64,000 bases of DNA. Source: Azolla caroliniana (lineage: Eukaryota; Plantae; Polypodiophyta). Shown one piece after another: positions 980 to 59,836 of the stretch. Both the position numbers and the translations under genes were made by a program. Under the pieces are notes generated by a model that was not told the origin of the DNA, made no database searches, and saw nothing but the letters and a program-made list of their open reading frames with translations. Each line of letters opens with the position of its first letter. The first letter of the stretch is position 1. The stretch spans positions 8,928,001 to 8,992,000 of the forward strand of contig JBHGNT010000008.1 of the NCBI GenBank assembly GCA_043228905.1, given 5' to 3'.

Positions 980-3900
980 GTCGTCATTGCCGCTTGCTCT
1001 TACTTGTTCGGATGTGCCGACTCCTTCGGTTGGCTCGACTTCCTTTATTTGCCATCTCCCCCCTTGTTTCTTTCTTCCTCTCCGGCTACTTGTACGGTGC
1101 CATCCATTCCAATACCTGTTCTCCCCCTCAAGTGTGGCACATCGAGATGTTGAATGCCGAGCATCTCTGAAAAATGTTGCAACTTGTCCGATCCGAGCGG
1201 CTTGGTGAAGATGTCGGCAACCTGCCGATCTGTGTGATCATACCGAAGTTCAACTTAACCGTTGAGGACCCGCTCATGAACAAAGTGATAATGCACTTCT
1301 ATGTGCTTTGTCTGAGCATGGAATACAGGGTTCTTGGCGAGTTGTATGTTGCTTACATTGTCGCAATAGATCAAGATCAAGGTCGGCACATCGATCTTGA
1401 GGTCTAACAATAGTCACCGAAGCCAGATGGTTTCACAGGTGGCAATGGTAGCGCCCCGGTACTCAGCCTTAGTGCTCGACAGAGCCACTGTTGGCTGCTT
1501 TTTGCTACTCCATACAACAACCGCGCTACCAAGTGAAAACATGTAACCGGAGGTGGATCGGCGATCCAATGCATCACTAGCCTAGTCGGCATCGGTATAC
1601 TCGACCAACTTCCCACCTATACCGTTGTCGCGTTGTTACGCGTGTGCGTGGAGAACAAGGCGGGACCACTGGGGTCTTGGACCGAGGAATAGGTGAGAAA
1701 AGGGAGAGAGAGAGAGACGCTCTCACACACGTATAGACAAAGAAGCGCACGGGAACGCGGCCCAACAACACAGGAGACGCGAGTTGAGTAGGGGATAGAG
1801 TATAAGAACACTAGTGTATGTATATAAATATATGTATGCAGACGACTCGAACGGTTACAGCCGATCAGGTCGGTGAGATGGATGCCGACGCTTGATCACC
1901 CACGCACACAGGGGAGCAAGATGGAGATTCTACCGGAAGCACACGGGCGTTCCACGGAGCAGAATCAACCTCTCAAGAGCCTGCGCAAAAGAAAGCTATG
2001 GAGAACGAGAGAGAAGAAGAGCTCGGTCCCAGTCCGACAACACTTCGTCCCCTCTCGTCCCCATCTAGCCCCCGTCTCCCTCTCTTTTGTAGCTCAAGGA
2101 GGGAGGCCGTTGACCCGTTTACATCACATTAATTTTCTGTCCTTTCGGACAGAGATACTCCTCGATTCTCCCTATAGAATATTGCTACCTAGGATTCGAC
2201 TTTTGTGCCTACCTATCTACTATACAACAAGGGGCGTGCCCACGTGTAAGGGCCGGTTCACACACGCTATACACGGTTTGCGCCTGGGGACGGTTTTCTT
2301 CACGACATCCGCCCCCACCTAACCGTGCATCCACCAGTATGCGCCAAAATTGGGTTCCTACTGGAGAAAACCGGTCCTTGCTTTTATTCCTCGTTTACCG
2401 GTTCGTCCTCCGCCTCGGGCTGCTCGTCGTTGTTGTCCATGCCCCCTAGCTCCGGCTCACCGTCGTGTCGTTTCTTGAACGCTTTGATCCTCTTCCCTGC
2501 TACCGGTATCGCCATTCTCGTACCGTCGAGCTCCGCGAGATGGTACGTCCCATTGTCGTTGGCGCCTGTTACTACGTAAGGCCCGAACCACCTCCTCGCA
2601 AACTTCCGCGTGGCCCTGTGCTGATTGTCGAGGCTGCTGTCGTAGACTAGCACCCAGTCGCCTTCCTCAATCTTCCTTGGCCGGAGCCGGTGTGTTCGGT
2701 CAAACCGGGCTTTGTTCCTTATCCTCGCTACCCGAAGTTTCTGTCCGAACATAAGCTGTGCCGGCATGAACCTGGTTACCGAACTGTGCGTAGTCCGGTC
2801 CGCCCACAAGGCATAAGGTAGCAGCCGTGGCCAGTTCCCGACTTGGCCTCCGCACGCCCGTACTAGCGCTTTGACAATCGGCCCGTGTCCGCGCTCTACT
2901 TTCCCGTTCACCTCTGGATTGTACGCTGTGGTGAGCGAAAGTTTGACTCCTAGCCGGTCGAACAACTCTTCGGCTTCTTCTGCGTCCAACTCACCACGAT
3001 CAGCCACGATCTTCCCTACGCACCCGTATCGACATACCACGTCCTCAATCAAAAACCGGCACACGGCTGCAGTCATCTTGTTCTGCAGGGCTCGGCCTTC
3101 AACCTGGTTCGTTAGATCCTCCCGAGCCAGCACCAGATACCGCATCTGTCCTACCCCCATTGGCATTGTCACCAAATCCACCATCCACTTGAAGTGGACG
3201 GTCGGAGGGTAGGTCAGGTGAAGCTCGTCCCGGTGTCGGATCATGGAGTGCACCTGACAGCTTTCGCAAGTCGTCACGAACCGATGCACGTCCCGGTATA
3301 GTCCCGGCCACCAGTACTTCCCCTTTAGCTTTTCGAACGTGGCCCACGTTCCACGGTGTCCAGCCCAAGGACTATCGTGGTACGCCGCCATCAAATCCTC
3401 TTGTTCCTCCTTCTTTGTTGTCCAGAGGAGAGAAATGTAAACTTAGGAAATTAGCAAACGCCGAGTCCGAGTATCACGGGCCACCGACGGCTCGGCTGTG
3501 TATTAGGGGAAACGTTATTTAAACGAGGACCAGTACCTCAGAGCGGGAGAGAAGAAAAATATAGGCGGAAGCACTAGCTTAGTCCCTTGTAACTAGATAA
3601 TCTTGTAAGGTCACCGGCCGTAGGCCGTGTTTGTAATCTTTTTTCTGTCGCAGTAATATATCTGATTTGTGCCCATTTTGCTCCATGTGTCTGTGCTTGG
3701 ATTCATACCTATGATTTCAGCGCCGCCCACGCCTATCAAGATCTCGCTAGTGTTTTATCTCTGATCATTGTCTCTCTCACGACGCCTCTGTTACGAGCCT
3801 TCACGTACCATGCCCTTGAATACCGATAGCCGCAGATCTATCGAAGATGTTCACCCAAAGGAATGGGTAACACAATTGGGCACGCTCGGTTACAGCTGTG

Positions 3901-4063
3901 AGTGCACAGCGAACTTCGTTGAAGGTAACCACCAGCCGCCGTTACGGCGCCCTCTCGCACCACGAGGTCTCTGCCACCTGCTCGACGCCCTGAGCTAGTC
4001 GAAGGAACTTCCGACTCGGCGGTCATTGAACAATCCTTTCTCGAGCAATCGGAGGCTTCCCCA

Positions 4064-7000
4064 GTGCAATACTCGCCACCGGACACTCGATTGCGAGTTG
4101 ATTCACCACCAAAACCCCTGCCGAGCCCTTCGGAGGTCAATCAACCGGAACTAAACCCTTTTCCGGTGCTACCAGAAGACCTAGAGTACGACATCATGCC
4201 GTACCCATACCCACGATACACCGACGGCCCAGACGCGGAGTCACACATCTGTGCCTTCATATCCACGTGGCAGGCCAACCACTCAACACACCGCCTCACG
4301 CCGGCCGAAATCGATGCCTCAAAGATTGCCGAGTTCACACTCTCCCTCGATGGACCGGCCGCACGATGGTACTCTCGGCTCGAAATAGGAGAGGCCACCA
4401 CTTTCCAAATCGTGCGCACAAAGTTCCTTGAACTTTTTCATCGCGAGGTGCCTAAACGGGAACTGCTTCGGCAATTCTTCTCTATATGCCAGGAACCGCA
4501 CGAAACGGTCGCGCAGTTCACGATCCGGTTCGAGGATCTCTACAGACAAGTGGCCGATGATGTCTCAGCACAACATATACCGGACACTTTCCTGTCCAGT
4601 TTACAAGAGCCTCTCCGAACGACTCTCGCACTTACAAATTTCGCCAACCATACTATCGAACAAGTCATAGCGCGGGTTCTCGCCCACGATTGGACCCAAC
4701 ACGGTGCGGCCTTCTCGATGACATCCTTACAAAACGCTCTTCCCCAAGAGGACAATCGCTTTCGCCAAGCTTTCCAATGCACAGCGTGTTCAGGATCAGG
4801 GCACCTGGCCCTCGAATGTCCCCACCGACCACAGTGTCCGATCTGTTAGTCTCGAGCTCACACTGTCGAGCAGTGCGAATATAATATGCTGAACCGCACA
4901 ACGGCGGCACCGGTCCGCTAGATCGAGCCACGAAATACATACTCTCGGTAGGACGAGCGATATGTCTACCGAGACTAGGATAACGACCGACCGCGATCCC
5001 TGGATCGACGGCACCGAGACGACGACTACCGACGTGATGACCGTCGTGATCACTATCGCGATGACTGGCACGACGATTATGCTCGATATGATGACGATCG
5101 CGATGACCGGTATGACCGACGGAACTCACGCATTGATCGGCGAAACGGCAACCACAACACACGCAACAATAGGAGACCTAATGACAACCGCCGACGGGAC
5201 GCTCCTCAAAATGACCAGCGCAACGCTAACGCACCTCGGAACAACCCACCACCAAACGAGACTGAGAATCAACAACAACAACTTCCACATACAGACCGAG
5301 CGGACACCAGTAGCTCGGCCAACGTTACATGTTTTAAATGTTACCAACCAGGCCACTACGCCATGCAATGTCGAACAACCAACCGTGGCAAGGCACCTGC
5401 GGTGAACAATATCATGGCCGATGTTCAAACCGTCACTACCCGGAGTAAAGCGCAGACTACTCAGTGGCAAATCCAGGATGACGTCCGTCAGGCAGCAAAA
5501 GAATGGATCGACATGGCCAATAAAAATAATGCCGTGCGCATGCAAACAGACATGAGAGACGGGCCCAGTGAGGCACCACAAACCTCGGTACCAGCCATGT
5601 CGTCAGAGGACGACCAACTATGGGATGTTCTTACCAACTCCCGCATCTCGCTGCCCCTACATAAACTGTTACCACTCATGCCGAGATTTCGGGACACCCT
5701 GGCGGCACTCCAGGCCAATACTAAGCCCGTGACGCCACTGGTACACCTCACCGAAGCAGGAACCGGTCCACCACTCATGGATTCTCAGAACCCAGCCGTG
5801 TGAATCATCATTAAGGGACAAGACCTGCACGGATGCATCATTGACGGCGGATCCGGCGTAAACGTTATTAGTGAGTCAACGTGTCACAACCTCGGCCTGA
5901 ATCAATAGGAACCATGCCCCTTTTGGCTTCGGATGGCCGACACCCGCTCCGTTCACCCCATTGGTTTAATCCGCCATCTCGACTTCACACTTGGAGGCTA
6001 CATGTTCACGATCTCAGCCGTCGTGCTAAGACTAGAGACACAAGGCGCCTACCCAATGTTACTAGGTCAACCATGGTTGCGTACAGCGAATATCAAGCAA
6101 CATTGGCAACGCAACATGATCTCGTTCCGAAGAGGCAATACAAAAGTCCAAATCATCACTGAAGAACGAGTCCCCGTCGCCCTCAACACTTCGCCGTTAT
6201 ACGCGGAAGGGGTCCATATGCTTGACGGTTTGGCCGATGAGGAGGTCGATGACTTCCTAGATGATCATCCCACGATCATCCCTCTCTTCGAAATCAATGC
6301 CTTACCAACCATCGAGCCACCTAAAGACGAGGAAGTCACGGAGGAATCACCACCCCAAGATGAACCAGATCCAACCACAGTTGCCGAGCTACGCCATGCT
6401 CGGGAGGCTTTCGAACGCGAACTCGCCATTTCACAACGAGTCAAAGCATCAACCCTGGAAACAATAAACCTCGGCTGAGACGAGAATCCCTGTACAATAC
6501 AAATCGCCAATAATCTACCAACTGGAGAACGAGCATGCCTCGTACGATTTCTCACCGACTACCAGGATGTTTTCGCTTGGTCTTACACCGATATGAAGGG
6601 GCTGGATCCTCAATACTACCAACATCAAATTCACATCTTACCCGACACTCGGCCGGTTCAGTAGAGGCGCTACAGGATGAACCCCAACTAAGCCGCTAAA
6701 GTCAAAGAGGAAATCGACAAACTACTCCGAGTGGGCTTCATTCGCCCTGTTAAACGGGCTACGTGGTTGAGCCCGATCGTTGTGATCCCAAAGAAGAACA
6801 GAAAAATCTGCGCCTGCGTCGACTATCGGAAGCTTAACGCGGCAATAGTCACCGACGGTTTCCCTCTCCCATTCACAGACAGCGTCCTCGACACGGTAGC
6901 TGGCCACGAATGCTACAGTTTCCTCGACGGGTTCAACGGCTATAACCAGATAGGAATGCACCCAGAGGATCAGGAGAAAACCACTTTCGTCACGGAATGG

Positions 7001-9305
7001 GGTGTTTTTGTAGCAGAAGTAATGATGTTCGGTCTAAAAACGGCGCCGTCTACGTTCCAGTGCATCATCACCGAAATCTTTCATGACTACATCCCGGCGT
7101 TCATGCAAGTCTTTCTCGACGATTTCGGTGTATGGCCATCGACGGGAACACATAACCCAATTACGACTCTGCCTGGACCGATGTCGCCAAGCTCGATTGA
7201 GCTTAAATCCGGCGAAATGCGCGTTCTTAGTAACCAGCGGCAACCTTCTCGGCCACATTGTCAGTCAAGAAGGCATCGCTATGGACCCGGATAAAGTAAA
7301 GGCAATCCTGACCGCCACCGCACCCTCGAACGCTAAGGCACTAAGCCGATTTTTAGGACAGATCCGGTGGCACAGCCGAATGATACGACACCTGGCCGAT
7401 TTCGCGACACCTTTACACGTGGCAGTCCATCGCCTTCCCTTCCAATGGACGTCAATCGAGGACACGGCCTATCAGACCCTGAAACTAATGCTATCACATG
7501 CCCCGACGGTCCAGTCTCCGGTTTGGTCCGAACTGTTTCATGTCTTCGTAGATGCTTCAAACATCGCCATCGGAAGTGCCCTGATGCAATGCACACCCCC
7601 AAATTGGTATAGGCCCATGTACTACGCCAGCCGACGGCTCTCGACTGCAGAAAGGAATTACTCCACCACCGAGTGGGAGGCCCTCGGTATGATTTATAGC
7701 ATCAATAAATTCCGGCATTACCTCTTGGGCCGGAAATTTACCTTTCACGTGGATCACTCGGCCCTTCTTTATTTGGTCAATAAACAAGCCCTCACCGGAT
7801 GGTTGGCTCGATGGATGCTCCTACTCCAAGAGTTTGATTTCCAGATTCAGTATCGACCCGGGGTACAACATGCCGTCGCCGACTACTTGAGCCGTCTTGA
7901 GTCAGGGGAACTGGCGAAAACAACGTACGAAGAGCTACCGGACGCCAGCCTATTTAACCTGACCACGATACCAGACAATAACGAAGATGAATGGATCACG
8001 GAGATGGCCCATTTTCTCACTACCGGTTTACCTCCCGAGCAGATGCCCCTTGACACGAGAAAACGCCTAGCAGTGCGTAGCCGGAATTTTTGCCTCGTCT
8101 CGGACATTCTCTACCACAAAGGCTCGGACGACATATGGCGCCGAGTGATTCGGCAATTCGAGAAGAACGCCGTTCTTCAGGAGGCTCACCAGGGAGTAGC
8201 TGGGGGGCACTACGCCGGGGATTCCACAACAAGGAAAGTTTGGCAAAGTGGATTGTGGTGGCCGACAACGAAGAGAGACGCTCACGAGTTTTGCCGGCAG
8301 TGCGATTTGTGCCAACGACTGGGGCAACCAATGGAACAGTCACGCATGCCACACCAGCCGATTCTTCCGTTGGACCCAGTTCAAAAATGGGGTTTGGATT
8401 TTGTAGGCCCTTTCAAACCACCTGCGGCCCGTACAAGGAATAGGTATATTATCGTTGCCACGGATTACTGCACCAAATGGGTCGAGGCTAAGGCACTCCG
8501 AGACAACACGGCAACATCCACGACTAAATTCGTGTACGAGCACCTTTGGTGCCATTACGAATGCCCAATCGAGCTCGTTAATGACCAAGGTGGGCACTTC
8601 ATCAATCATCTAATACATGAGCTTACACACCACTACGCGGTGGTGCACAAGAAAAGCACATCATACTACCCGCAGGCGAACGGCTTGGCGGAATCGACCA
8701 ATAAAATCCTCCAAACCATACTGAAGAAGATCGTCAATGAAAACAGGACCGATTGGGATGACAAACTCCAGAGCGCGTTGTGGGGGTATCGTACGACTTT
8801 CAAAACAAGCATCCAATCAACCCCCTTTCGAATGGCGTTCGGGTTAGAAGCCGTAATGCCCGTTGAGTTCCAAGTCCCGAGCCTCTGAGTTCAAATCAAA
8901 GCACGGCTCCCCGAGGCCCAATCCGAGCAATACCGGCTGGAACAACTCCTTGAACTCGGCGAAGATAGGATAGAGAGTATGGCCCAGCTCGAAGAACGCC
9001 AACGACAACGTAAGGCTTTCGTGGATCGACATCGAAACGGGCTGGAAAAGGAGCTCACCATCGGCAAACCGGTTCTTCTTTTTCAAACACGACTCAGGTC
9101 TATGCCGGGAAAATTAAGATTTCGGTGGACCGGTCCATTCTGGATTATCGACGAGTTCAACGGGACGTTCCAGCTCGGCACACTCGCCGGCGACACTGTC
9201 AAAAGCTGGGCCAATGGTTTCCAACTTCGACCATATCGAGGCACTACACCACCCAACCCGTTTCGGGAAACCACCACGGAGGAGGCCACGTGTCCCCCTG
9301 AATAA
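4064..9305 (+). pseudogene. Element B gag-pol polyprotein (gag with three CCHC knuckles, PR, RT, RNaseH, integrase), disrupted
   Basis: CTACSGSGHLALEC and CFKCYQPGHYAMQC knuckles; IIDGGSGVN protease; CVDYRKLN, FLDGFNGYNQI and FLDDF in RT; DAS..AIG RNaseH; GLDFVGP integrase. In-frame stops plus one frameshift near 7130. Confidence 0.9.
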
Positions 9306-10519
9306 GGACTCACCCACCTTCTTGAAATTAATAAAGTAGGTAGGATTAACCATAGTTTAGCCACCGATTAGCTACACCTACACCACCCACCTAGGCACCC
9401 ACAAATTTAGGAGCACCCCTCGCCACCACTCATTTAGTACCTATTTAAGCACATGCAAAGCACTAGAGGCACCCCACTCACCTTCAGGACACGTGATGCT
9501 AGTCACTTATTATGGCACCCATGACTCAGAATCTTCAGGATTCGCTTCAGGCACAAAACCCTAGGAGTAAGTTACTAAAACCGTTTCCAAAATGCAGCAC
9601 AGACACGGAAGTTCATTATCACTCCCAATCTCCATTGCTCTCAAGCTCAAAAACCCCGTCTCGCTCTCGTCGCTCTAAACGCTTTTGCTCTCAAGCCCTC
9701 TTTCGCTCTCATAGCCCCTCTGCTGAACTTCCCCTTCCTGTTGTTCCTCCTCTGCCTTGCCCTCACCTCATCACTCTTCTTCACTCTTCCACACAGTCAA
9801 ACCCCGTCTCCATCTCCACCATGCCTCTTACCGCTTCAACAGAAACCCGCGCCTGGCTCCAGGAACGAGGAATGGGCGGTTACCTGAAGATCATCGATGC
9901 CCCCGCGCACCCAGATGCCCAAGGTGTGGCTAAATGTATTTGTCCTGAAGCCATCACCAACAATGTGCTTCGGGCTATTTTGGACCTACAACGGGGAGGG
10001 GACCATGAAGTCGACATACCCCCGGCATCGAAGATGAAAGAGTACTTCGGTGAGTACTCAGCCTCAGGGAAGGCATATCGCACGTATGGCGGTCCCAACA
10101 GAGCTTTCGGGGAGATTGCTCGTATATTGATGGAGTATGCGTTCGTGCATACGAACCCGACAAGCATGCCGCAGAACAAGGCAGCCATCATCATCAGCGC
10201 GTATGAAGGAAACAGAGTCAATTGGGGAATCATCACAGGCGAAGGACTCCGCGCCGCCTTAGCCTCATTCCAGTCCGGTAAGAAGATGTTGTCTGTTCTT
10301 ACCCACTTTTTGATGGTTCTATACCCACCCTCTTCTCTTCCTTCCCCTCGCACACTCACGTCCCCACCACCACCACGAAGGCAGAGAGAGAAATTTGTTG
10401 CCATCAGCCACGAAGCATGGGAGGAGCCCACATCGCCTTCACCTCCTACCGCCGACCAAAACCCTGTTGAGAAGCAAGCTCAACATGGTATGTGATGCTT
10501 ATGAGAAATAAGCTATAGT

Positions 10520-10676
10520 AGCTATTTAGCTACTAGTGAACAAAAAGGTAAAACAGCTATTTAGCTATGGACAGCTAATTAGCGACTGAACAGCTATTTA
10601 GCTAGTGACAGCTAATTAGCTAGTGAACAGCTATTTAGCGACTGACAGCTAATTAGCTACTGGCAGCTAATTAGCT
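10520..10676 (+). repeat. Array of 8 AGCTA(A/T)TTAGC near-palindromes (~18-19 bp period) in the U3 of C; duplicated in its 3' LTR
   Basis: Copies start near 10520, 10555, 10573, 10592, 10610, 10629, 10647 and 10665. Confidence 0.85.
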
Positions 10677-11113
10677 GCATGTGTAATAACTTATGACTTA
10701 GGTAAAAGTAAGTGAGAGTGAATAGGAAGTAAGTAGTAAGAAAAAACAGAGAATAGTGAGTAGAGAACTCTGAGAGAGAGTGAGAGACCAGAAGACTGAC
10801 GAGAGCAAGTTGAGCTCTACATGTAATAGAAGAAAACCATTTTGCTACTACAGAGGTAAGTCCCCTTTCCTTTCTCTGTCTGTTTAGAGCACGCTAACGA
10901 TCCAGCACACTACGATCCGCCGCGCATACAGAAGAAGAGCCCGAGTGCCTTCTTCACGTTTTCTTAACATGGTATCAGAGCAGAGTAGCTCGTAAGGAAG
11001 AGTATAGCAGTGCCTTAATCTGAGAAAGTTATTTCTCTGGTTGCTGATCAGAAATCAGAAAGTTACTTGTTGAAGTAACTAAAGCAGAACCCTGGTTTTT
11101 TGGAAGGAAAAAA

Positions 11114-14100
11114 ATGGCTGCAGAGAATGTAGGCCAAATGGTCACAGAGAAATTAGATAAAAACAATTTCCCGGCGTGGAAATTCAGAATGACAAACTTT
11201 CTGATGGGGAAAGGATACTGGGATTACATTGAAGGAGACCTAGAAGAGGCTCCAGAGATCCCAGAAGAGAATGCAACAGCTGCACATATTAAGGCATTCA
11301 AAGATTGGAATCAAGGGGCAAGGAAGGTAATGCATTGGCTATCACTCAGCATCTCAGATTCAATGCTTGGGCATATACAAGATGCTATGCTCCCAAAAGA
11401 AGCTTGGGACAACTTGGTAAAACTGTTTGCTGTAAACACAAAGGCTAGAAAGCTCCAGTTAAAGACTGAGCTAAATACCTTGGAGAAAGGTAAGATGTCA
11501 ATAAATGAATATGCCCTAAAAATCAAGAGTATATGTGAGTCACTTGCTTCTATCAATGTGAAGATAGAAGATGATGATAAGGTAGAAATATGCTTGAGAG
11601 GCTTGGGACCTCAATACAAAAGCTTTAAAACCTCTATGCTTACAAGGGATAGTATCCCAAGTTTTTCAGATCTGGTCTCAATGCTTGTGGTAGAGGAAAG
11701 GAATCAGATGGATGATGCAAATAAAGGAAACTCAGAGAACGAGGGGCAAGCCCTCTATAATAATGCCGGAAGAGGCCGAGGAAGAGGCCATGGAAGATTT
11801 GGCTCAGGAAGAACCAATAATAATGGTTTTCAAGGAAGAGGACAACAAGCTCATAGAGGAGGAAACAACAATAGAGGCAGGGGGAGCAACCGAGGTAGAG
11901 GTAAGCAAACTTATGTAAATGATGATGGCTGCTGGTATTGTGGTAAACCAGGCCATACACAGGCTGAATGTTACAAGAAACAAAATGATGAGAAAAGAGG
12001 AAAAGGACAACAGAGTAACTATGCCTCTACTAGTGAAGATTGTGAAAAGGAAGGTGTTTTTGTAGTGCAACATGAGATAGCAGCAGTGGCTGAAAGCTCA
12101 CAGAAATGTAATGAAGAGTTTACGTGGTATGTAGACTCGGGGGCATCTAACCATATGACTGGACATGCAAATTGGTTTGAGAGTTTAAGAGAACCAGAGG
12201 TTCCTGGTTATGTACAAACAGGTGATGACACAACTCACCAAATAAAACATGTTGGAGATATCCCATTGTGGGAAGAAAGAGGAAAAACCAAGTATATGTT
12301 GAATGTGATGCATGTTCCAAACCTTGCTAAGAATCTGATTTCTGTTGGACAGATTGTAGAGCAAGGTATGCAAGTAAAGTTTAAGCCAAGTGGATGCTAT
12401 ATAGAAAAGAATGGGAAGCTCATTGCAAAAGGGAAGAGACAAGGAAGAATGTTTATCTTGGATGTAGAAATGCCCAAACAGATTTCAGCCATGTTTGCAA
12501 ATGGAACGAGTGTAATCTCAGATGTGGAAATGTGGCATAAAAGGATTGGCCATATAAGTATGCAAACATTAAAGAATATGTTGAGAAAAGATGCAGTGGC
12601 TGGACTGCCAAACTTGAAAAAGTGTGAAATGGGAAAAGTATGTGAAACATGTCAATATGGTAAGCAAAACAGGTTGCCATTCCCTCATGAGAGACATGTA
12701 AGCAAAAATCTGTTGGATTTGGTACATACAGATGTATGGGGACCAACAAAGAATGCATCTATTGGTGGATGCAGATTTTATGTTACATTTATTGATGATT
12801 GTTCACGGAAGACATGGGTGTACTTCATGAAGGAGAAAAGTGAAGTATTTGACTGCTTTCGTAAGTTTAAATGCATGGTAGAAAAGCAGGCTGGTACAAG
12901 GATAAAATGTTTGAGATCTGATGGAGGAGGAGAGTATTTCTCCAATGAATTTTCTGATTTTTTGTGTAATCAGGGAATAAGAAGACAGTTCACATGCCGA
13001 TATACTCCACAGCAAAATGGAGTTGCTGAGAGGAAAAACAGAACTTTGGTGAACATAGCAAGGGCAATGATGATTGAGAAGAACATGCCATTATACTATT
13101 GGGCAGAAGCTGTAAATACAGCAAATTACATTTTAAATAGATGTATTACATCAGGAGTACATGAGGCAACTCCTGAAGAGTGTTTTTATGGCAGGAAGCC
13201 TAGCTTACAACACTTGAAGGTGTTTGGATGCCTTGCATATGTACATGTGCCTGCAGAAGTAAGAAGTAAGTTGGATCCAAAAGCAGAAAAATGTATCTTT
13301 GTTGGATATTCAGAAGAACAAAAAGGGTACAGATGTTATAACCCTATGACTAAAAAGATTGTGACAAGTCGAGATGTGATATTTGATGAGTTGGCTAGTT
13401 GGTACAGCCCAAAACAGAATCTAGAGACTGATGAAGACTGTCAAAATGAAGACAAAGACAGATCAGAAAATGTAGAAGACTGTCACAGAGATGGAGACAA
13501 GGTTGGACAGCAAAGTCCAACATCAACAGAATGTTCTGGACCATCAAAAAGCTCAGATGGTAAATCTGATTCAAATTCATGGAGTGGAAAAACTGGACAG
13601 AAAAAATCTGATGACAAAAAAGGAAAACAGAAAATGCCAGAGTATGAAATCCCGGATGATCTATCAAAAAACATGGAAGATGAAGATTCAGATATGTCTT
13701 TGGATGATTTCCTTGGAATACAGGAAATGAAAATCCCTGGTATGGAAAAGGCAATAAAGAATGCAAATCAAAAACTGAGAAGATCAGATAGAGAGAAAAA
13801 GACTGTGGAAAGATTCGGGTATGATACATATATGGCTATGCACTATGCATATATGTCTAAGGTGGTACAGATCCCTGACCCAAACAGCTTTGAAGAAGCA
13901 AAATCTGAGAAGAAATGGATGGATGCAATGCAAGAAGAGATTGATGCATTGGCTGAAAACAAAACGTGGGATTTAGTGAAGTTACCAAAAGAGAAAAATG
14001 TGGTAGGCTGCAAATGGGTCTACAAGACAAAGCATGACTCCAATGGAAATGTAAGTAGACATAAAGCAAGATTGGTTGCAAAAGGATATGCTCAGATGCA

Positions 14101-15439
14101 AGGGATTGATTATGATGAGACTTTTGCACCGGTTGCAAAGATGGCAACCTTGAGAACACTACTTGCTGTAGGAGCAGCCAGAAAATGGATTTTGCATCAC
14201 ATGGATGTAAAAAATGCTTTTTTACATGGTAACTTGGAAGAAGAAGTGTATATGAGTCAACCACCAGGTTTTGAAGATAAGAAACATCCTGATGATGTAT
14301 GTAAGCTGAAAAAAGCTCTCTATGGACTGAAACAGGCACCAAGAGCATGGCACAGAGAACTTTCAGATTCTCTGAAAAATCTTGGTTTCAAAATGTCAAA
14401 AGCGGATCCTTCTTTGTATGTAAAAAGTGAAAATGATTGCATTGTTATTATTCTGATTTATGTAGATGATTTGATTATTGGAGGAGATTCCGTGGATGAA
14501 ATAAGAAAGTTGAAAAAAAATCTGGAAATGCAGTTTCATATGAAAGATTTGGGAGATCTGAGATATTTTCTTGGTATTGAAATCATCAGATCTGAAAGTG
14601 GTATATGTATGTTGCAAAAACAGTATGCAACAACTATGTTGAAAAAGTATGGTATGCTTGGATGCAAACCTATTGCTGTACCACTTGATAAAAACTGCAA
14701 GTTGAGGGCTGATTTGGGAGCCAAGATAGAAGATGTAAACATGTACAGGTCTATGGTGGGCAGCCTTATTTATTTGACTATAACAAGACCTGATTTGAGC
14801 TATGCTGTTGGATTAGTCAGCCAGTTTATGCAACAGCCAACAAAGCCACATTTGGACTGCATCAGAAGGATTCTGAGGTATGTAAAAGCAACTCAGAACT
14901 TTGGACTATTTTACAGGGCTGATCTAGACATAAATCTGGAAGGATATACAGATGCTGATTGGGCTGGAAGCCAAACAGACAGGAGATCCACAAGTGGATA
15001 CATGTTTACCTTGGGAAGTGCAGGAATTTCATGGAGTAGCAAGAAACAGGCTACTGTTGCATTGTCCAGTACAGAAGCTGAGTATAGAGGGGCTGCAATA
15101 GCCACATGTGAAGAAGTATGGATCAGAAGACTGCTTGCTGATCTGGGAGTATATATAGATGGTGCTGTCACAATCTGGTGTGACAATATGAGCAGCATTC
15201 AGCTTGCAAAGAACCCAGTGTTCCATGCAAGAACAAAGCACATTGAGGTGCATTATCACTTTGTTAGAGAAAAAGTGATGGAAGGTGAAGTTGATCTGGT
15301 GTATGTGAATACAAATCAGCAGGTTGCTGATATCCTTACGAAGGGATTGAGTGTGGAAAAACATACACAGTTTCGGAACATGATGGGAGTTGTAAACATT
15401 GATGAGATGGCTAAAAAGCAAAATGGAAAAGAAGATTGA
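11114..15439 (+). CDS. Copia gag-pol polyprotein (gag, CCHC, PR, integrase, RT, RNaseH), 1441 aa, uninterrupted
   Basis: CWYCGKPGHTQAEC; WYVDSGASNHM; GAG-pre-integrase WHKRIGH..CETC; integrase HTDVWGP/RSDGGGEY/NGVAERKNR; [15 protein letters not shown]; RNaseH YTDADWAG/TKHIEVHYHF. Integrase precedes RT (copia order). Confidence 0.97.
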   Translation: MAAENVGQMVTEKLDKNNFPAWKFRMTNFLMGKGYWDYIEGDLEEAPEIPEENATAAHIKAFKDWNQGARKVMHWLSLSISDSMLGHIQDAMLPKEAWDNLVKLFAVNTKARKLQLKTELNTLEKGKMSINEYALKIKSICESLASINVKIEDDDKVEICLRGLGPQYKSFKTSMLTRDSIPSFSDLVSMLVVEERNQMDDANKGNSENEGQALYNNAGRGRGRGHGRFGSGRTNNNGFQGRGQQAHRGGNNNRGRGSNRGRGKQTYVNDDGCWYCGKPGHTQAECYKKQNDEKRGKGQQSNYASTSEDCEKEGVFVVQHEIAAVAESSQKCNEEFTWYVDSGASNHMTGHANWFESLREPEVPGYVQTGDDTTHQIKHVGDIPLWEERGKTKYMLNVMHVPNLAKNLISVGQIVEQGMQVKFKPSGCYIEKNGKLIAKGKRQGRMFILDVEMPKQISAMFANGTSVISDVEMWHKRIGHISMQTLKNMLRKDAVAGLPNLKKCEMGKVCETCQYGKQNRLPFPHERHVSKNLLDLVHTDVWGPTKNASIGGCRFYVTFIDDCSRKTWVYFMKEKSEVFDCFRKFKCMVEKQAGTRIKCLRSDGGGEYFSNEFSDFLCNQGIRRQFTCRYTPQQNGVAERKNRTLVNIARAMMIEKNMPLYYWAEAVNTANYILNRCITSGVHEATPEECFYGRKPSLQHLKVFGCLAYVHVPAEVRSKLDPKAEKCIFVGYSEEQKGYRCYNPMTKKIVTSRDVIFDELASWYSPKQNLETDEDCQNEDKDRSENVEDCHRDGDKVGQQSPTSTECSGPSKSSDGKSDSNSWSGKTGQKKSDDKKGKQKMPEYEIPDDLSKNMEDEDSDMSLDDFLGIQEMKIPGMEKAIKNANQKLRRSDREKKTVERFGYDTYMAMHYAYMSKVVQIPDPNSFEEAKSEKKWMDAMQEEIDALAENKTWDLVKLPKEKNVVGCKWVYKTKHDSNGNVSRHKARLVAKGYAQMQGIDYDETFAPVAKMATLRTLLAVGAARKWILHHMDVKNAFLHGNLEEEVYMSQPPGFEDKKHPDDVCKLKKALYGLKQAPRAWHRELSDSLKNLGFKMSKADPSLYVKSENDCIVIILIYVDDLIIGGDSVDEIRKLKKNLEMQFHMKDLGDLRYFLGIEIIRSESGICMLQKQYATTMLKKYGMLGCKPIAVPLDKNCKLRADLGAKIEDVNMYRSMVGSLIYLTITRPDLSYAVGLVSQFMQQPTKPHLDCIRRILRYVKATQNFGLFYRADLDINLEGYTDADWAGSQTDRRSTSGYMFTLGSAGISWSSKKQATVALSSTEAEYRGAAIATCEEVWIRRLLADLGVYIDGAVTIWCDNMSSIQLAKNPVFHARTKHIEVHYHFVREKVMEGEVDLVYVNTNQQVADILTKGLSVEKHTQFRNMMGVVNIDEMAKKQNGKED

Positions 15440-18434
15440 AGAGAACCTCAAGCAAGAATAAGTTGAGCTTGAGGGGGAGTGTTGAGAAGCAAGCTCAACA
15501 TGGTATGTGATGCTTATGAGAAATAAGCTATAGTAGCTATTTAGCTACTAGTGAACAAAAAGGTAAAACAGCTATTTAGCTATGGACAGCTAATTAGCGA
15601 CTGAACAACTATTTAGCTAGTGACAGCTAATTAGCTAGTGAACAACTATTTAGCGACTGACAGCTAATTAGCTACTGGCAGCTAATTAGCTGCATGTGTA
15701 ATAACTTATGACTTAGGTAAAAGTAAGTGAGAGTGAATAGGAAGTAAGTAGTAAGAAAAAACAGAGAATAGTGAGTAGAGAACTCTGAGAGAGAGTGAGA
15801 GACCAGAAGACTGACGAGAGCAAGTTGAGCTCTACATGTAATAGAAGAAAACCATTTTGCTACTACAGAGGTAAGTCCCCTTTCCTTTCTCTGTCTGTTT
15901 AGAGCACGCTAACGATCCAGTACACTACGATCTGCCGCGCATACAGAAGAAGAGCCCGAGTGCCTTCTTCACGTTTTCTTAACAAACCCCGCATCTGCAC
16001 CACTACCCACCCAACCCCAACAAAAAAGGGCAGTTTCTGAGACCTGCCAAGAATGGGAGGAGGAGATTGCCGCGGAGGACAACACGGCAGATGATGTCAC
16101 CATTCGATAGCCAATGTCACGCCCCTCGGTAACTTCCCCAGGGCCTAGCCCACACGCCAACACACAGCAGGCAGCACCACCACGACCCCAAAAAAGGAAG
16201 CAGGCGGAGGAAACGACACTACCGGCCCCGGAACCCCAAACCCAGCCGAGCAAGAGAAGACGACTCAACCGCGAGTCCTCGGCAGAACAAAAAGAGCCAG
16301 AACAGGAGCAAGCCTTAGTTGTCAGACAGAGCAACCTGGCCATCATCCTTGAGGAGGCATCGCTGAACCAGGGAAAGATCGAGCATGGGCAGACAACGCA
16401 GATCTCAGAGGATGAAGTCCTCGGGTATAAAGACCTCCTCGCGGAGGCTCCTACGCCTCGGTACGACATTCGAGCTGGTCGACTTCCTCGCTAGAGCCCA
16501 AGTCGCGGCAGCCGCTCAAATGGCGGAAGAGCACGCCGAAACAAAAATGATTCAACGCGCGCTATTAGGTGAAATTGAGCCCCAGGAGGACAGAGCTTTA
16601 CAAAAAATAGGGAGAAAGAAGCAGGCCAAACAGGCCGCTCTCCTCATGGAGGTCCCCGAGTTGAACACGGCCCTTATCGAGGCATATAGGGACCTGGATC
16701 GCAGTACGGAGGCAGCCAAAGACATGGCTCGAAAGATAAAAATAGCCCAAAAACAGGCTAAGATGGCTACGGAATTATGGCACGCTGTGAAACAGAAGCT
16801 GGTAGCCTGGGAGCAAAACCGGCCGGAACAACAACTCTTGAGCCTCCCGGGCATGACCACCGAGGCCCTCCCAGCCCTTCCACGCATAACAATGATGGAT
16901 GAAAGCACCGTCACAGATTCAATCCTGACGATTCAGGCCAGCACACAAACTGACTCGTTACAAATGGTCGATGCCTGCACAACAACCGCGGCGGCCACGC
17001 CCATGGAGAAGACTGAGATACCACCCCCCTCGTCCACCCAAGGAGGTGGCAACCTAGACAGAACCCCCGCTCCGGGATTACCGAGCGGAGCTTAAAGAAG
17101 AACAACGACGAACCGAGAGACACGAACAACGGCATCAAGAGGCGATGGCTCGCCTAAAAGAAGAAGCTTCCAAGCATATGGCCGAGATTAGAGCCCAGGC
17201 CGACCAAAGGATACACGAGCAGAACGAAGCACTGGGCCGGGTACAAGCGCAAGCCGCGGGCAAAGAAGCCGAACTCAAAAGCAAGCTGGAGGAATACGCA
17301 ACCATAGTGGCAAAGAAAGAGAAGGAGGTCCTAGACCTACAGGCCGCGCTCGACAATGTGAAAGACTGGAACCACCGGCAGGAGGAAAGAAATCGCCAAC
17401 GGGAGGAGAGAATGATTGTGGAGAATGCCGAGCTACAGAGTCAGCGTATGACCCTTAAAGAAATGGCGGACGAGTTTTTCATCAAATGCAAGCTACTTTT
17501 GGAGCAAAAAGATGAATTATCTGATTCCTACTTCGCCCTACAAGAAGAGAGAATCGTCGAACGGGAACAAGTCCGGGCCACGTGTCAAAAAGAATGGGAG
17601 AAAGCTACCGAAGAACTCACCAAGCATTATGAGCAGTCTATCCAGCTCGTAACCACGGATGCAAAGAACACTCAAGCCACCTATGAACTACTAGCAAAGA
17701 AGCTTCAGGCCGAGGTCGACGGCTTAAAACAGGAATTAGCAGCCATCCGAGCACAACCCGACATGGATGAGACACGCATCAGACTACTGATTGAGAAACA
17801 ACGCCAGCACCTCACCAAAAAGGTTGAGGAAACATTAAGTCACACAGGAGACGAATGGGCAGCCCAAGCTGCCGAATTGCATATTTTACACGCCGACGCC
17901 GAGAACCGACAGAAGGAAGGCCGCGGCGTTTACAAAATGGACGAAGCCAGCATACAAAACCTGCGTGCAGATTTAACCGAGGATTACTAGTCCTTGGCAA
18001 AATCTCACACTGCGGCAATCGAGCAAATATTGGAGGACTTCAATGACGGTCAGATGTTGTTTCGCCTGGAAGCAGAAGCCTTCGAACAAGAACGACTCGC
18101 AGCCATCCCAACCAGCCCTCCAACGGCCACAGAGCAGAAGGAAGAACCTTCCAGCGAGGGGATCACGGACACGGCACAGGAGGAAATTGCCCCGGCCAAC
18201 AGACCTCCCATGGACGCCCACACGGTACCAGATCCAGTCAAAGTAGAGGTCAGCGCCCTCAAACCCACACCCCCACCAGAAGAATTGGCTGCACCTGAAG
18301 CGGACGCCTGAGAAGATATGACACCCCCGGACCAAACTCAACCCCCCGCACTGACAGTCCAACCAGACCACCCTGCCACCACCCCGGACCCCGAAAACAT
18401 CCTCGACATCTTAAAAGAGGAATGAAACGAGGAT

Positions 18435-18522
18435 CACGCCTAAAAGGCCATTTTTGTAATATTGTTAGTATTTTTGTAAGTCGTGGGTCCGACGGACAAG
18501 GTCCTGTCCCACAGGCGTGCCA
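18435..18522 (+). ncRNA. tRNA-like structure at the expected PPT position of element B
   Basis: CACGCCT (18435-41) pairs with AGGCGTG (18513-19) and is followed by CCA. GTGGG/CCCAC T-stem with a TCCGA loop start. 41 nt lie between the acceptor 5' strand and the T-stem. Confidence 0.6.
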
Positions 18523-21328
18523 GGTGTTGTCTAGAGGACAGAAATGTAAAATTACGAAATTAGCAAACGCCGAGTCCGAGTATCACGGGCCATCGACGGC
18601 TCGGTTGTGTATTAGGGGAAACGTTATTTAAATGAGGACCAGTACCTCAGAGCGGGAGAGAAGAAAAATATAGGCGGAAGCACTAGCTTAGTCCCTCGTA
18701 ACTAGATAATCTTGTAAGGTCATCGGCCGTAGGCCGTGTTCTGTAATCTTTTTTCTGTCGTAGTAATATATCTGATTTGTGCCCATTTTGCTCCATGTGT
18801 CTGTGCTTGGATTCATACCTATGATTTCAGCGCCGTCCACGCCTATCAAGATCACGCTAGTGTTTTATCTTTGATCATTGTCTCTCTCACGACGCCTCTG
18901 TTACGAGCCTTCATGTACCACACCCTTGAATACCGATAGCCGCAGATCTATCGAAGGTGTTCACCCAAAGGAACGGGTAACATTCTTCGCCACCACTCGG
19001 AGCGGGATGTCGTTCCTCTTCTTCGGGAACTTCCATATGTACCCGTCCTGGAGAAAGAATCGGTATGCTTTCTTCCGAATCCGGTTGGCCTCATCCTTGA
19101 TCTGCGTCCGGTTTGCTGCGTGCCTCATCGGTATGCTGCGTCCGGTGTCATTGTTTTCAGGAACCCGCCGATCTGCAGCCACTCCCCGTTGTACTTGATC
19201 TCGTCGAAATCGTTAAGCGTTGAAGTGCATTCCCTGCAAGTTGTTACGTAAGCCGCCTCGAAAAAGTCCACGCCGACTTCCTCGTCCTCCAAAACCATGC
19301 CGCCCTTGTTTTCGAACCTCGCCCTTGAAAGCATGTCGGCCATGGCATTGTCTTTCCCGGAAATGTGTCGTATTTCCGGATTCAGGGACTTGATGTACGC
19401 TATCCACCTGAGCATTGCCAGGTCCGGCGTCGCGCATCCGGAAACCATGCCAAGAATTGACAGGCAGTCCGTCTCGATAATTACCTCTGTCCCGATCAAG
19501 TAGTCTTTATCGGCCTTTACCGCCGAAACGATACCCCAGAGCTCGCGTTTAACCTGGGCGTATCCTCGTTGTCGCTCGTTGAGGACCTTCGCGCCGAACC
19601 GGATCGGGAAACGCATGCCGTCCTCGTCCTCTTGGTTGACGACCCATCTGATCCTGGTCAGACTCGTGTCTACTGTTACGTAAATTGGAGTGTCCTTTTC
19701 GTAGATAGCCTTTCGTAGCATCAGAGCTGCGGCAAGTGCTTCCTTCATCTTTCGAATAGAATCCGTATGCTCGTCTCTCCACTCGAATTTTCACCCCTTT
19801 TTCAGCAACCCGTATAACGGCTCCGCGACGTGGGCGTAATGCGGGATCCATATGTGGTAGAACGTGCATGCTCCCAAGAACCTCCGAACCTCCGTGACCG
19901 AGCTACAATCGTGCTTCATCGCAGAGATGGCTTCTACCTTAGCCGGAGACGGATTCCGGCCGTACGACCCGCATAGGTGTCCGACGACCATGATCTCTGA
20001 TTGCCCGAAGGCCAATTTTTCCCCAGAGAAGGTGAGCCTCGCACCCTCTAACCTCTGCAGCACCTTCTCGCAGTCATCGATGTGCGTCGCCACGAATTTC
20101 CAGCACCCATCCGGTCCGATCGTCTCATCCTTTTCCTCCACCGGGCATCCCTTGATCGGGACGTTGTCCAAAAACGGCATGGTGATGTCCGGGATACAAT
20201 CCCTCAGCACCTTGTTCATTGCGTTCACCATGTGAGCCACCGAGTTCGTCCCTCCTTGCGGTAGGGTACACATCCGTACTAGGCCGAGAGGAGTTCGCAT
20301 TGTCGTGATGTCTCTGCTCTCTATGGCTACCTAGAACTGATCGTACCTCGAGTAGAGATCACCAACCGAGTAAATCGACCTTCCGGCGAAGGCCTCCGCG
20401 AACTCGTCTATTGTGGGTCTGATTCCTGCGTTTCGAATGGTCACCTTGTTGACCGGCTGCAGGTCTTGGATAAAGAGCAGCGTGCCGTTCTTCTTTGGCA
20501 CGGTAAACCACCGATTTGAGTATGGGTCACTCGACGGTTCGAGGATGCCCATCTTGACCTTCCGCTTTAACAGCTCCATCAGCTTCAGGATGTGAGATCT
20601 GGGTACTGGAATCGGTTTGAGACTCCACGGCACATGCGGTACCGTGAATATCACCATCGGTTCCACGATTGTTGGGTCTACGCACCCAATCTCCTCCGGT
20701 GAGAATGCGAAAGCCTTCCCGTGCCTTCCGAGCATTTCCCGAAACTGGTCCTCTTCCGCCAGCAGTAGGAAGCCGCCCCCACCGATTTTGAGCTCACGTA
20801 GCGTTATGTCGGTGAAAGTGTGTCCTATGTGGGCCGGATTTCGTAAACTCGGGTCTGACGCAACCCCCTTTATTCGCAACTCGCTGCCCTCCGGCAGGGG
20901 AGCCGCGACTGGCCTCACCTTCCGGTCCACAGTCTTGTACCTCGTGTCCACCCGGGCCGTCCGATCCGACTCGAGCCCTCTACTGAAGTTCGCGATGACT
21001 TCGTACATCCTTTCCGAACATACCGGAATCGTCCGGTCCTCTTTAAGGACTCGTCCGACTACCTCTCGCAGCTCCCCCAAGGTATCGTCGAAAGAGACCG
21101 CCTCCACGGTTCCGTTAATTTCCTCTCCAGGGTTGAGGATACCACATGCCCGAAGTCGCTCCTCCGCCCTTTTCTTCTTCCGGCCAACGACGTCGACTAT
21201 CGTACACCCTCCGTTGTCGGAGAACCAAAATTTCCTACTTATAGTACAGGTCTTCTTCCCTATCGTACACTTGTGGGGTTTCCCCGGAGTGTCCGGACTA
21301 TTGCGGCCCCACGCCTTGATAGCCCTCT

Positions 21329-23491: not shown

Positions 23492-24588
23492 AAAGAGATG
23501 TCGCGTTGTTACGCACGTGCGTGGAGAACAAGGCGGGACCACTGGGGTCTTGGACTGAGGAATAGGTGAGAAAAGGGAGAGAGAGAGAGACACGCTCACA
23601 CACGTATAAACAAAGAAGCGCACAGGAACGCGACCCAACAACACAGGAGACGCGAGTTGAGCAGGGGATAGAGTATAAGAACACTAGTGTATGTATATAA
23701 ATATATGTATGCAGACGACTCGAATGGTTACAGCCGATCAGGTCGGCGAGATGGATGTCGACGCTTGATCACCCACGCACACAGGGGAGCAAGATGGAGA
23801 TTCCACCGGAAGCACACGGGCGTTCCACGGAGCAGAATCAGCCTCTCGAGAGCCTGCGCAAAAGAAAGCTATGGAGAATGTTACGAGCATGACCATATAA
23901 TATCCCGTGGTAAGAATTTACCGTAGTATTCTATACACGTGGATAAGTGTGAGGGTTAAACGAGGGTGTAAAGAAGGGGAGGATTACTTTTAATCCTCGG
24001 GATTGAGACAACCCATTAGGTCAAGTGTGAACTTGCCTGGGGGCCTTGGGTATCGCTATAAATAAGAGGCCTAGCTACCCTCATTTGATCATCTTTTGAC
24101 TACATCGAGACTCTGCTCGTGTGGTGGGTCAACTCTTGTAGCGAGCGTGCCAGCACTAGGTACGACTCGACTCCACGGCGGTGGTATGGGACGCCGATCG
24201 AGGCTCGAGTCCGTCTCGATCCCTTCGCTCGGGGGTGGTCGGGTGGATCGGCACCCTTCTTTCTCTTTCTCCTTTCTATCTATCTTTTCATTATCCTTAT
24301 CTTAAGCTTACGTTAGTACCAAGATCTATAATATTTGGTATCAGATTTTTGTACTAATGTTTCTTTGTTTTTCATTTGTCTTTTGATTGATGCTGATCGA
24401 TCGTTGTGCGGTTGGCCTTGATCCAGACAACGATCAACAAAGAACTTCGGTAACTCTTTCCATTTTATTTTTTCTATTCTCTTTTCTCCCATCTAATCAT
24501 GTGTTTAGTTTATATGTCATTTTTTTCATTAAGTCAATGTTGTTGTATTGGTCTTTAATTGATTATCTAAAACGTTTACATATGTGCA

Positions 24589-24842
24589 CGAGGTCAATAC
24601 CTCGTTTGACATATTAATAATATGTGATGAGTGTCGTATGCGTACGAGGTTAATACCTCAATTACGTATTACGTTCACGAACATATGTTACGTTTGCGTA
24701 TGAGTTTAATACCATGATTTGTTGTAAACGATATGCGTTTGGTCTCGTATTCGTAAGAGGTCAATACCTCCATTGCGTATTATGATGATCTCTTATTTGT
24801 GGATGTTTCGTGTGCGTAGAGGTATATACCTCGATTACGTAT
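24589..24842 (+). repeat. Five regularly spaced GAGGT-NNNN-ACCTC stem-loops in the 5' leader of J
   Basis: Cores at 24590, 24646, 24702 (degenerate), 24757 and 24819; periods 56, 56, 55 and 62 bp. Confidence 0.8.
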
Positions 24843-26021
24843 CTCGATCACATCATTTGTGGCTATTTAATATAAGGATATGTTTAATATAGGCATATGT
24901 GGTCACATATATACATATTTGATCGTATATATGTGATAAGTAAACATATGTGTATATTCGTTATTACGTGATTATCTCGAAAGTTGTCCTTGTCGGGAAA
25001 AGGATGTTGGTGGCCGTCCTCACATTTTTGTGAGAATGGCGTTGTCACCATCCCTTTTTCAACATTTTTTTATTGTTGATAACCCCGTTGACGACCTCGA
25101 TTTCGTTACGTAAAGAAACGCGAATAGCCAAAATGATGTTGAGTACGTAGGGCTTGACCCACTTCAAGTGAGGTCGCTCCAATGACGCACGTATCCAACA
25201 TCCCTCCCTCGTCACATGGATACGATGCCACCATGAGCTCGTTCTTACGAGAGGCATTCGTAATGACGTGACCATGTGATGGCCCACGTGAGCCTACTAC
25301 GAAACGAGGGCTCATTTGGCTTGACCATTAGGTTGCCCTTTGGCATATGCCATCGTAATTACGAGACTTGAGGTTAGGTAACGTACCAACATAGTTTTGG
25401 TAAATGAGGGCGAAATAAGGACCTTGACATATATGTTCTTTTAAAAAAACATATATGATCAATTGCCTCGCATATCTCTTATACGCATCAAACATTAAGC
25501 ATTCGAGAAGAGCAACTTACTTGGTTGGCTCAAGTGTTTAATGTATTTGTTCTCGAGGTCTCGAGTTCAAATATTGACCAAGACCATACAACATCCTTGA
25601 TACATATGACTATAACACATGTTTAGACTTAAGGTCTAAGTGCACCTCGGGGTCCTCGTAATAGGACTTAAAGAGCCGAAACCACTTATGTGGGCACCGA
25701 AACATAGTTTATTGTTAACATTTTTTTTCGTGTATAAACTATTCATGACGCGAACATACATGGTTGAGCCTCGGGGAGCCACCATGAAAAAATCGATATA
25801 GAGATCAGGGAAAGACATTTATTTGTCACCCCCATGGTTTTTAAAACACCTTTGTGTTACCATAGTAACCTGATCTTGAACCTCATCTCATACGTCTAGA
25901 GGGGTATTGACGTGAGATAATGATATCGATTAATGCTCGCCCATGATATGTTTACATCACGACAAGATGTTATGACTATATCTCTGACCTTATCCTATTT
26001 CTTTTCCAGAAATAATCTTTA

Positions 26022-59732: not shown

Positions 59733-59836
59733 ACCAATCATTCTCTTTTCTGGCACATGTTGTAGGATGTGCAATTTGGTGGAGGTGGCACATGTTGCAC
59801 ATCCTACAACATGTGCCAGAAAAGAGAATGATTGGT
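59733..59836. repeat. Perfect 42-bp inverted repeat with a 20-bp spacer, abutting the LTR end of element I
   Basis: 59733-59774 is the exact reverse complement of 59795-59836. Confidence 0.92.

Follow-up and report, generated by a model that had tools for sequence, protein, structure and literature searches.

A tRNA-Arg 3'-half-like motif in the place of the polypurine tract in a Ty3/gypsy retrotransposon family represented in Azolla caroliniana DNA

In the retrotransposon Ty3 and in retroviruses, the minus strand is primed by a transfer RNA (tRNA) at the primer-binding site (PBS), and the plus strand by a polypurine tract (PPT), which is cut from the element's own RNA and which, lying just upstream of U3, sets its start (PMC5371799). 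Plus-strand priming from a PPT is treated as general for retroviruses as well as for retrotransposons with long terminal repeats (LTRs) in the available parts of two accounts (PMC5371799, PMC6317226). Here we describe a Ty3/gypsy element at positions 3416-18982 of a 64,000-nucleotide (nt) stretch of Azolla caroliniana DNA (contig JBHGNT010000008.1, positions 8,928,001 to 8,992,000, forward strand; hereafter the window), which shares with these systems a presumed tRNA-type PBS, a putative plus-strand primer site abutting U3, and the reverse transcriptase (RT), RNase H and integrase, but which has a copy of a tRNA 3' half, and no PPT, ahead of its 3' LTR. We propose that this conserved and split copy of the 3' half of tRNA-Arg replaces the PPT, and that on the minus-strand complementary DNA (cDNA) it would act as a second primer site for the host tRNA-Arg, a reading to which we assign a probability of about 0.57 from comparisons of sequence and position. 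The broader proposition appears likely, namely that this is an autonomous plant LTR lineage without a PPT, whose cDNA strands would both be started by tRNA-type primers, with either a second host tRNA-Arg or an element-made mimic of a tRNA end docking on the split, hairpin-containing minus-strand site as the plus-strand primer. The tRNA-like site in the place of the PPT is a new variant of LTR-retrotransposon architecture; the priming mechanism is a proposal.

Split tRNA-binding sites have a precedent in the primer activation signal of human immunodeficiency virus 1, which is located on the genomic RNA and functions in minus-strand priming. Likewise, in the bipartite PBS of Ty1 and Ty3 the acceptor stem and T arm of a single tRNA pair with two template segments, as we propose here; however, those sites lie on the genomic RNA and prime the minus strand, whereas the present site is antisense and situated at the putative plus-strand origin (PMC5371799). 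The self-priming elements Tf1, Tcn1 and TAR also carry an internal complement of the PBS, but theirs sits within the 5' LTR and takes over the role of the tRNA, while the one reported here precedes the 3' LTR and copies a tRNA (PMC6317226). A near-match search recovered the PBS complement only before the 3' LTR and none in the 5' LTR, unlike the Tf1-type organization. Helenus terminal-repeat retrotransposons in miniature similarly combine tRNA-derived sequence with an LTR element, but there it is inside the LTRs, is proposed to be a Pol III promoter, and belongs to non-autonomous elements retaining both PBS and PPT (PMC10886601). A Pol III promoter role was also considered for the present motif and rejected, the B-box-like stretch being split by the insert. 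In the literature outside subscription journals and Repbase, we found neither a tRNA-primed plus strand nor a motif of this kind; a sequence match in the accessible part of PMC5381547 is unrelated.

The element has the following organization in the window:

3411..3415, + strand: left target-site duplication (TSD), TTCTT
3416..3872, + strand: 5' LTR, 457 base pairs (bp), TG...CA
3878..3890, + strand: PBS, after a 5-nt spacer (3873-3877); its first 11 nt are an inverted repeat of the 3' site
4196..9305, + strand: gag-pol (Gag, zinc knuckles, RT, RNase H, integrase), with several stops and one frameshift
9512..18425, + strand: extra open reading frame (ORF), sense, broken and split by a nested Copia; coiled coil and conserved C-terminal domain
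10465..15984, + strand: the nested young Copia, outside the present finding, with an ordinary PPT
18435..18441, + strand: CACGCCT, proposed 5' acceptor strand; in one subfamily (12 of 46 copies) and not in the intact relative
18483..18492, + strand: copy of tRNA positions 49-58 (5' strand of the T-stem and T-loop); on the minus strand a predicted binding site for the tRNA T arm
18493..18505, + strand: 13-nt insert after tRNA position 58, with a 4-bp hairpin showing compensatory changes and a variable loop
18506..18522, + strand: copy of tRNA positions 59-76 minus one base, with the CCA end; on the minus strand a putative inverted second PBS
18523..18524, + strand: 2-nt spacer between CCA and the LTR TG, GG in 41 of 46 copies
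18525..18982, + strand: 3' LTR
18983..18987, + strand: right TSD, TTCTT

Direct TG...CA LTRs with the TSD TTCTT identify an LTR retrotransposon, and the domain order Gag-RT-RNase H-integrase a Ty3/gypsy element. The LTRs (457 and 458 bp) are 95.9% identical (Kimura two-parameter distance, K2P, 0.041), and the copy is old and broken, with both gag-pol and the extra ORF disrupted. The edge of the 3' LTR at 18525 is fixed by the LTR pair and the TSD. The junction before it is as the preliminary description had reported: CACGCCT (18435-18441) is complementary to AGGCGTG (18513-18519) and GTGGG (18483-18487) to CCCAC (18508-18512); the loop starts with TCCGA and carries a 13-nt insert containing an 11-nt hairpin (18494-18504); CCA (18520-18522) sits 2 nt 5' of the LTR TG; and there is no PPT.

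Relatives were collected from metagenome contigs by searching with the extra-ORF protein (a profile from an alignment of 8 sequences), a selection blind to the 3' motif, and the best 80 of 146 were analysed as loci (designated with the prefix L). An anchor before the LTR start was found in 46 of these 80 and the whole motif, i.e., the 3' 40 nt (18483-18522), in 45; in the remaining one, L056, the hairpin is deleted. Counts are thus given for 46 copies, namely the 45 loci with the whole motif and the window copy. The 34 loci without an anchor were left out before counting: 27 end at most 430 nt past the protein match and L071 ends with the stop of the ORF; the junction is missing altogether from L035 and is without its last 10 nt in L048; and four loci (L055, L064, L082 and L085) run off into other DNA. 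As a separate observation, the L048 contig, about 510 nt past the protein match, has lost exactly 10 nt ending in CCA between two GG while keeping the T-arm copy and hairpin. This loss, seen in a single low-coverage contig, might reflect removal of the primer or else a deletion by microhomology. The locus L086 has junctions at 1217 and 1938, 721 nt apart; here the end of a second element adjoins a truncated LTR.

The CCA is kept in 42 of the 46 copies and the GG spacer in 41, with TG following in 44. One relative, L032, is intact, with a 5' LTR, a PBS, an uninterrupted Gag-Pol of 1708 amino acids (aa), an extra ORF of 1171 aa, and the same 3' junction; none of the loci reaching the LTR, L032 included, has a PPT at the LTR start. 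Within the last 45 nt, no run of purines is longer than 4 in 42 of 46 copies, as against runs of 9, 9, 9 and 5 ahead of four further LTR elements in the window. Fifteen loci have extra-ORF DNA only 52-78% identical to that of L032; in these, 22-27 of the 27 tRNA-like bases match L032, while the identity of the spacer and LTR falls below that of the extra-ORF DNA; the tRNA-like bases are more conserved than the neighbouring coding DNA. The motif also agrees with contigs from five public runs, which carry three organism labels; the differences common among them are at 18499 and 18500, in the loop of the hairpin, and at 18513. On the sequence comparisons, the 3' 40-nt motif has to be considered more than chance, and it is a real, family-wide feature under selection. 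The age and decay of the window copy might have suggested a captured tRNA fragment without function or a PPT lost in this copy alone; this is extremely improbable and refuted by conservation, the motif being present in the intact relative and in 45 of 80 loci at a level above that of coding DNA. Thus, two checks which the preliminary description had proposed, for a PPT in intact relatives and for conservation across the family, both came out in favour of the motif.

The tRNA identity of the motif was assessed using the bacterial tRNA-Arg(TCT) gene of L106 as a stand-in for the host's own tRNA. Twenty-two of 46 copies match this gene at 26 of 27 bases. With a pattern derived from the motif, 37 prokaryotic or viral stretches were retrieved; in the 20 scanned with ARAGORN, the position of the match was called tRNA-Arg in 10, Asp, Cys or undetermined in 3, and nothing in 7. 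The 10 matches to the pattern in viral contigs were set aside as unrelated after the tRNA scan only, no relative of the pol was detected in viral contigs, and the exact junction had 0 matches in GTDB genomes. The PBS of the relatives is TGGCACGCCCGGT in 7 of the 8 loci bearing one, and the window copy departs from it, and from nearly all contigs, at 3878 and 3886; the accessible portions of PMC11963269 and PMC2533021 give no PBS sequence. The relatives' PBS pairs over 13 nt with the stand-in tRNA-Arg but over only 11 with the element's own tRNA-like end, and the 3' site is a perfect 11-nt inverted repeat of it. A conserved 6-bp hairpin with a variable loop is also found 3' of the PBS (3894-3909 in the window; L011, L028, L032 and L053).

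This perfect inverted repeat could alternatively signify an aid to end joining, wherein the 3' site would bind the PBS over 11 bp, or strands of the primer tRNA that have come free, and so bring together the RNA ends for minus-strand transfer, with an unrecognised short primer starting the plus strand. There is a precedent in Ty3, where the tRNA bridges the 5' and 3' ends (PMC5371799); however, the Ty3 3' segment binds the tRNA within U3, beside a normal PPT, and joining of ends explains neither the placement of CCA exactly 2 nt before TG in every subfamily nor how the plus strand is primed. Hence, we consider it unlikely. In some loci (e.g., L062) a stem is predicted between the 3' site and the LTR start, but it is inconsistent and was rejected as a candidate.

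Co-folding of the last 28 nt of the L106 tRNA with the minus-strand junction yielded a predicted three-way junction with the hairpin looped out in all six loci tried, at -51 to -57 kcal/mol (net -27 to -36) under RNA parameters and with the bacterial stand-in. In 19 loci with a coverage of at least 4, there are 23 departures from the tRNA. Of these, 21 are G-U/G-T-compatible in a tRNA:DNA duplex, with one shared change making up 18, and 3 of them break the T-stem on the plus RNA. The two parts of the motif also evolve differently. The inserted hairpin shows two-sided changes in 2 of its 4 pairs, with stem variants GGAC/GTCC, GGGC/GCCC, GTGC/GCAC and GCGC/GCGC that correspond to about three independent events on the extra-ORF tree, whereas the T-stem shows them in 0 of 5. 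Frozen tRNA-like parts together with a covarying hairpin would be expected of a site whose partner is a host RNA that does not change.

Starting from the sequence, position and conservation of the motif and from the covariation of its hairpin, all of which are directly observed, we infer the following course of priming by tRNA-Arg on the cDNA. A host tRNA-Arg, paired over 13 bp at the ordinary PBS, would prime the minus strand; after minus-strand transfer, RT would copy U3 and the 3' site, and RNase H would remove the RNA. The Gag zinc knuckles would open a second tRNA-Arg, which could then pair with the exposed minus strand via positions 59-76 (17 bp, with one tRNA base bulged) and 49-58 (10 bp), the hairpin being looped out at the 58/59 junction of the paired tRNA. 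Position 58 of tRNA is a methylated A at which RT usually stops. RT would extend the CCA end through the 2 nt into the LTR, RNase H would remove the tRNA, and integrase would trim the 2 nt to give the observed TG start. The suggestion in the preliminary description that a tRNA-Arg or a mimic primes the plus strand on the minus cDNA is consistent with these data, given the conserved motif and the lack of a PPT in the intact relative, and survives as a probable mechanism. The same pairing could take place if tRNA-Arg primed the inverted site on an antisense transcript and the short plus-strand product were transferred to the cDNA, and the Watson-Crick covariation seen in the hairpin is equally valid for both strands. 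That course, however, would require a hypothetical antisense RNA to be present in the particle, and more steps than priming on a cDNA that is already present, making it decidedly improbable.

Several observations weigh against tRNA-Arg priming on the minus cDNA, or at least temper it. The purine count of the last 15 nt (8-10) is just under that of the four control elements (10-12), so that the contrast with a PPT rests on the missing purine run and the tRNA identity, since purine content itself differs only slightly. A one-base deletion is fixed in the tRNA copy, and position 55, in the middle of the predicted helix, is variable (T>C in 34 of 46 copies, T>A in 3 of 46); neither is favoured in a pure pairing site, and both fit a self-folded T-arm equally well. 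G>A changes are also the usual type of decay, and the lack of covariation in the T-stem is weak evidence, because a frozen stem has few changes to begin with. Strong partners of the acceptor 3' strand (at least 6 Watson-Crick pairs) occur within 250 nt in 17 of 46 copies as against 8.6 expected, and in some subfamilies (L049, L053 and L086) pairing is predicted with a 7-bp acceptor partner located about 120 nt upstream. The co-folding applies RNA energy parameters to an RNA:DNA duplex and uses a bacterial gene instead of the host's own tRNA. Finally, all 80 loci derive from one series of metagenome assemblies and may be mosaics, and they include siblings, the 46 rows being 41 distinct ones.

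The deletion and the free position 55 would be tolerated if the element's RNA at this site survived RNase H, refolded into a T-arm with the hairpin, was cut after CCA and primed the plus strand itself, i.e., by ordinary PPT chemistry with a primer shaped like a tRNA end that this RT recognises. No second tRNA would then be necessary, and the covarying hairpin could shield the RNA. On the other hand, RNase H would be expected to cut a GC-rich hybrid of mixed sequence, and compensatory changes are absent from the T-stem, which is disrupted by T50C and G52A in well-covered loci; moreover, this stem is predicted at a probability above 0.9 in just 3 of 15 copies folded in context, and identity to a tRNA over 27 bases exceeds what such a primer would need. 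In Ty3, the choice of the PPT does depend on local geometry and on fit to the element's own RT (PMC5371799), and we regard self-priming of this type as possible though doubtful; it is the chief rival to priming by a second tRNA-Arg.

The preliminary description went further in interpreting the whole 90-nt segment as a tRNA-like fold from which the element might release its own primer, but this part did not stand up. The segment folds no better than shuffled sequence (z = -0.42; 70 of 200 shuffles fold equally well), ARAGORN detects no tRNA and Rfam no tRNA match in it, and the T-stem has a pairing probability of about 0 in the window copy when folded with its flanks. The spacing of 41 nt between the acceptor 5' strand and the T-stem is exact in the window copy, but only 12 of 46 copies have the strand at 30-60 nt upstream, and among these the spacer is 40-46 nt long. 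It is missing at that spacing in the other 34, and the T-stem is devoid of compensatory change. The strand is absent from L022-L025, L028 and L031-L033, a set which includes the intact L032 and the deepest-covered loci and which nests within or beside the acceptor-strand subfamily on the extra-ORF tree. Any 7-bp partner within 250 nt is found in 22 of 46 copies as against 16.4 expected; taken together, these partner counts indicate that some subfamilies may pair in cis, though such pairing is no requirement. In L037, L051, L053, L063 and L086, a 7-nt acceptor partner falls within the last part of the extra ORF, about 120 nt upstream, with pairing predicted in L053 and L086; it may be a coincidence of coding.

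The known tRNA mimics mascRNA and menRNA consist of a stack of the acceptor stem and T-arm, and such a stack is seen in one subfamily of the element; here, however, the acceptor pairing is not conserved, the T-loop is interrupted, and the CCA is encoded and out of register. Excision of a full mimic by RNase P and RNase Z in the manner of mascRNA, giving a self-encoded primer for the PBS, would be in keeping with the perfect 7-bp stem stacked on the T-stem in the window copy, with the rarity of such a partner 30-60 nt upstream in shuffled sequences (1.2%, 287 of 23,500), and with an A-to-G change in L013 and L040 that preserves pairing. Yet a mimic of this kind calls for a conserved acceptor stem with a discriminator on an intact T arm. 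What we find instead is a strand that 12 of 46 copies share and that the intact relative lacks, a variable spacer, no D arm and no anticodon arm. The CCA follows the 7-bp stem directly without a discriminator, at 7 nt from the T-stem as against 8 nt in real tRNA-Arg genes with the same 3' half. The relatives' PBS also fits the real tRNA-Arg better than the mimic. RNase Z cuts after the first unpaired base, upon which CCA is added, and the resulting end would misfit the relatives' PBS; the extra G in the PBS of the window copy cannot be explained as such a product either, as the relatives have T there and the G is private to this copy. A self-encoded full mimic is therefore very improbable and, at the level of the family, largely refuted.

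Regarding classification, a pol tree (midpoint-rooted, without named references) groups the element with proteins from ferns, conifers, liverworts and metagenomes, apart from a flowering-plant clade that we take to be Athila. No chromodomain was found in the element or in the intact L032 polyprotein, setting it apart from chromoviruses. Like the plant non-chromoviruses (Athila, Tat/Ogre/Retand, Phygy and Selgy), it lacks a chromodomain, and it shares with them features such as a 5-bp TSD, a length of about 10 kb and an extra ORF after pol (PMC6317226). Its Arg-type PBS is shared with Ogre and TatIII, where tRNA-Arg is used in 89% and 64%, respectively (PMC6317226), but the 1708-aa polyprotein of L032 has no Pfam match to an archaeal RNase H, nor was this domain found in the gag-pol of the window copy, and accordingly the element is not of the Tat clade. 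Athila has a PBS for tRNA-Asp, Asn or Ala, in contrast to the Arg type found here, and Phygy (Trp PBS) and Selgy (Ala PBS) have a 4-bp TSD and no extra ORF, unlike the 5-bp TSD and long extra ORF of this element (PMC6317226). It thus fits none of the non-chromovirus groups tabulated in the available part of that survey, which contains no mention of a PPT-less group (PMC6317226).

If tRNA-type priming of both strands is true, a high-copy family with an intact member would constitute a natural exception to PPT priming, in which primer choice by RT and RNase H is directly testable with short oligonucleotides. Programs for LTR detection that reward a PPT may under-call this lineage, and tRNA fragments would gain a second target in the replication cycle.

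The extra ORF matches no Pfam family; its conserved C-terminal domain of about 110 aa (17658-18100 in the window; P0121-P0270) has 167 relatives at E<=0.001, likewise without a Pfam family. The element is itself part of a nest at 1626-31209, where a minus-strand Gypsy hosts it and another element at 23873-30902. The Copia nested within it is young (LTR K2P 0.008), with a PBS that is presumably of the tRNA-Met type, and the minus-strand host, the 23873-30902 element and the Copia all have ordinary purine-rich tracts. Elsewhere in the window, there is an exact tandem duplication of 201 bp at 49936-50337, possibly an assembly artefact, and an inverted pair of about 980 bp at 6-977 and 59836-60813 whose arms are 89% identical.

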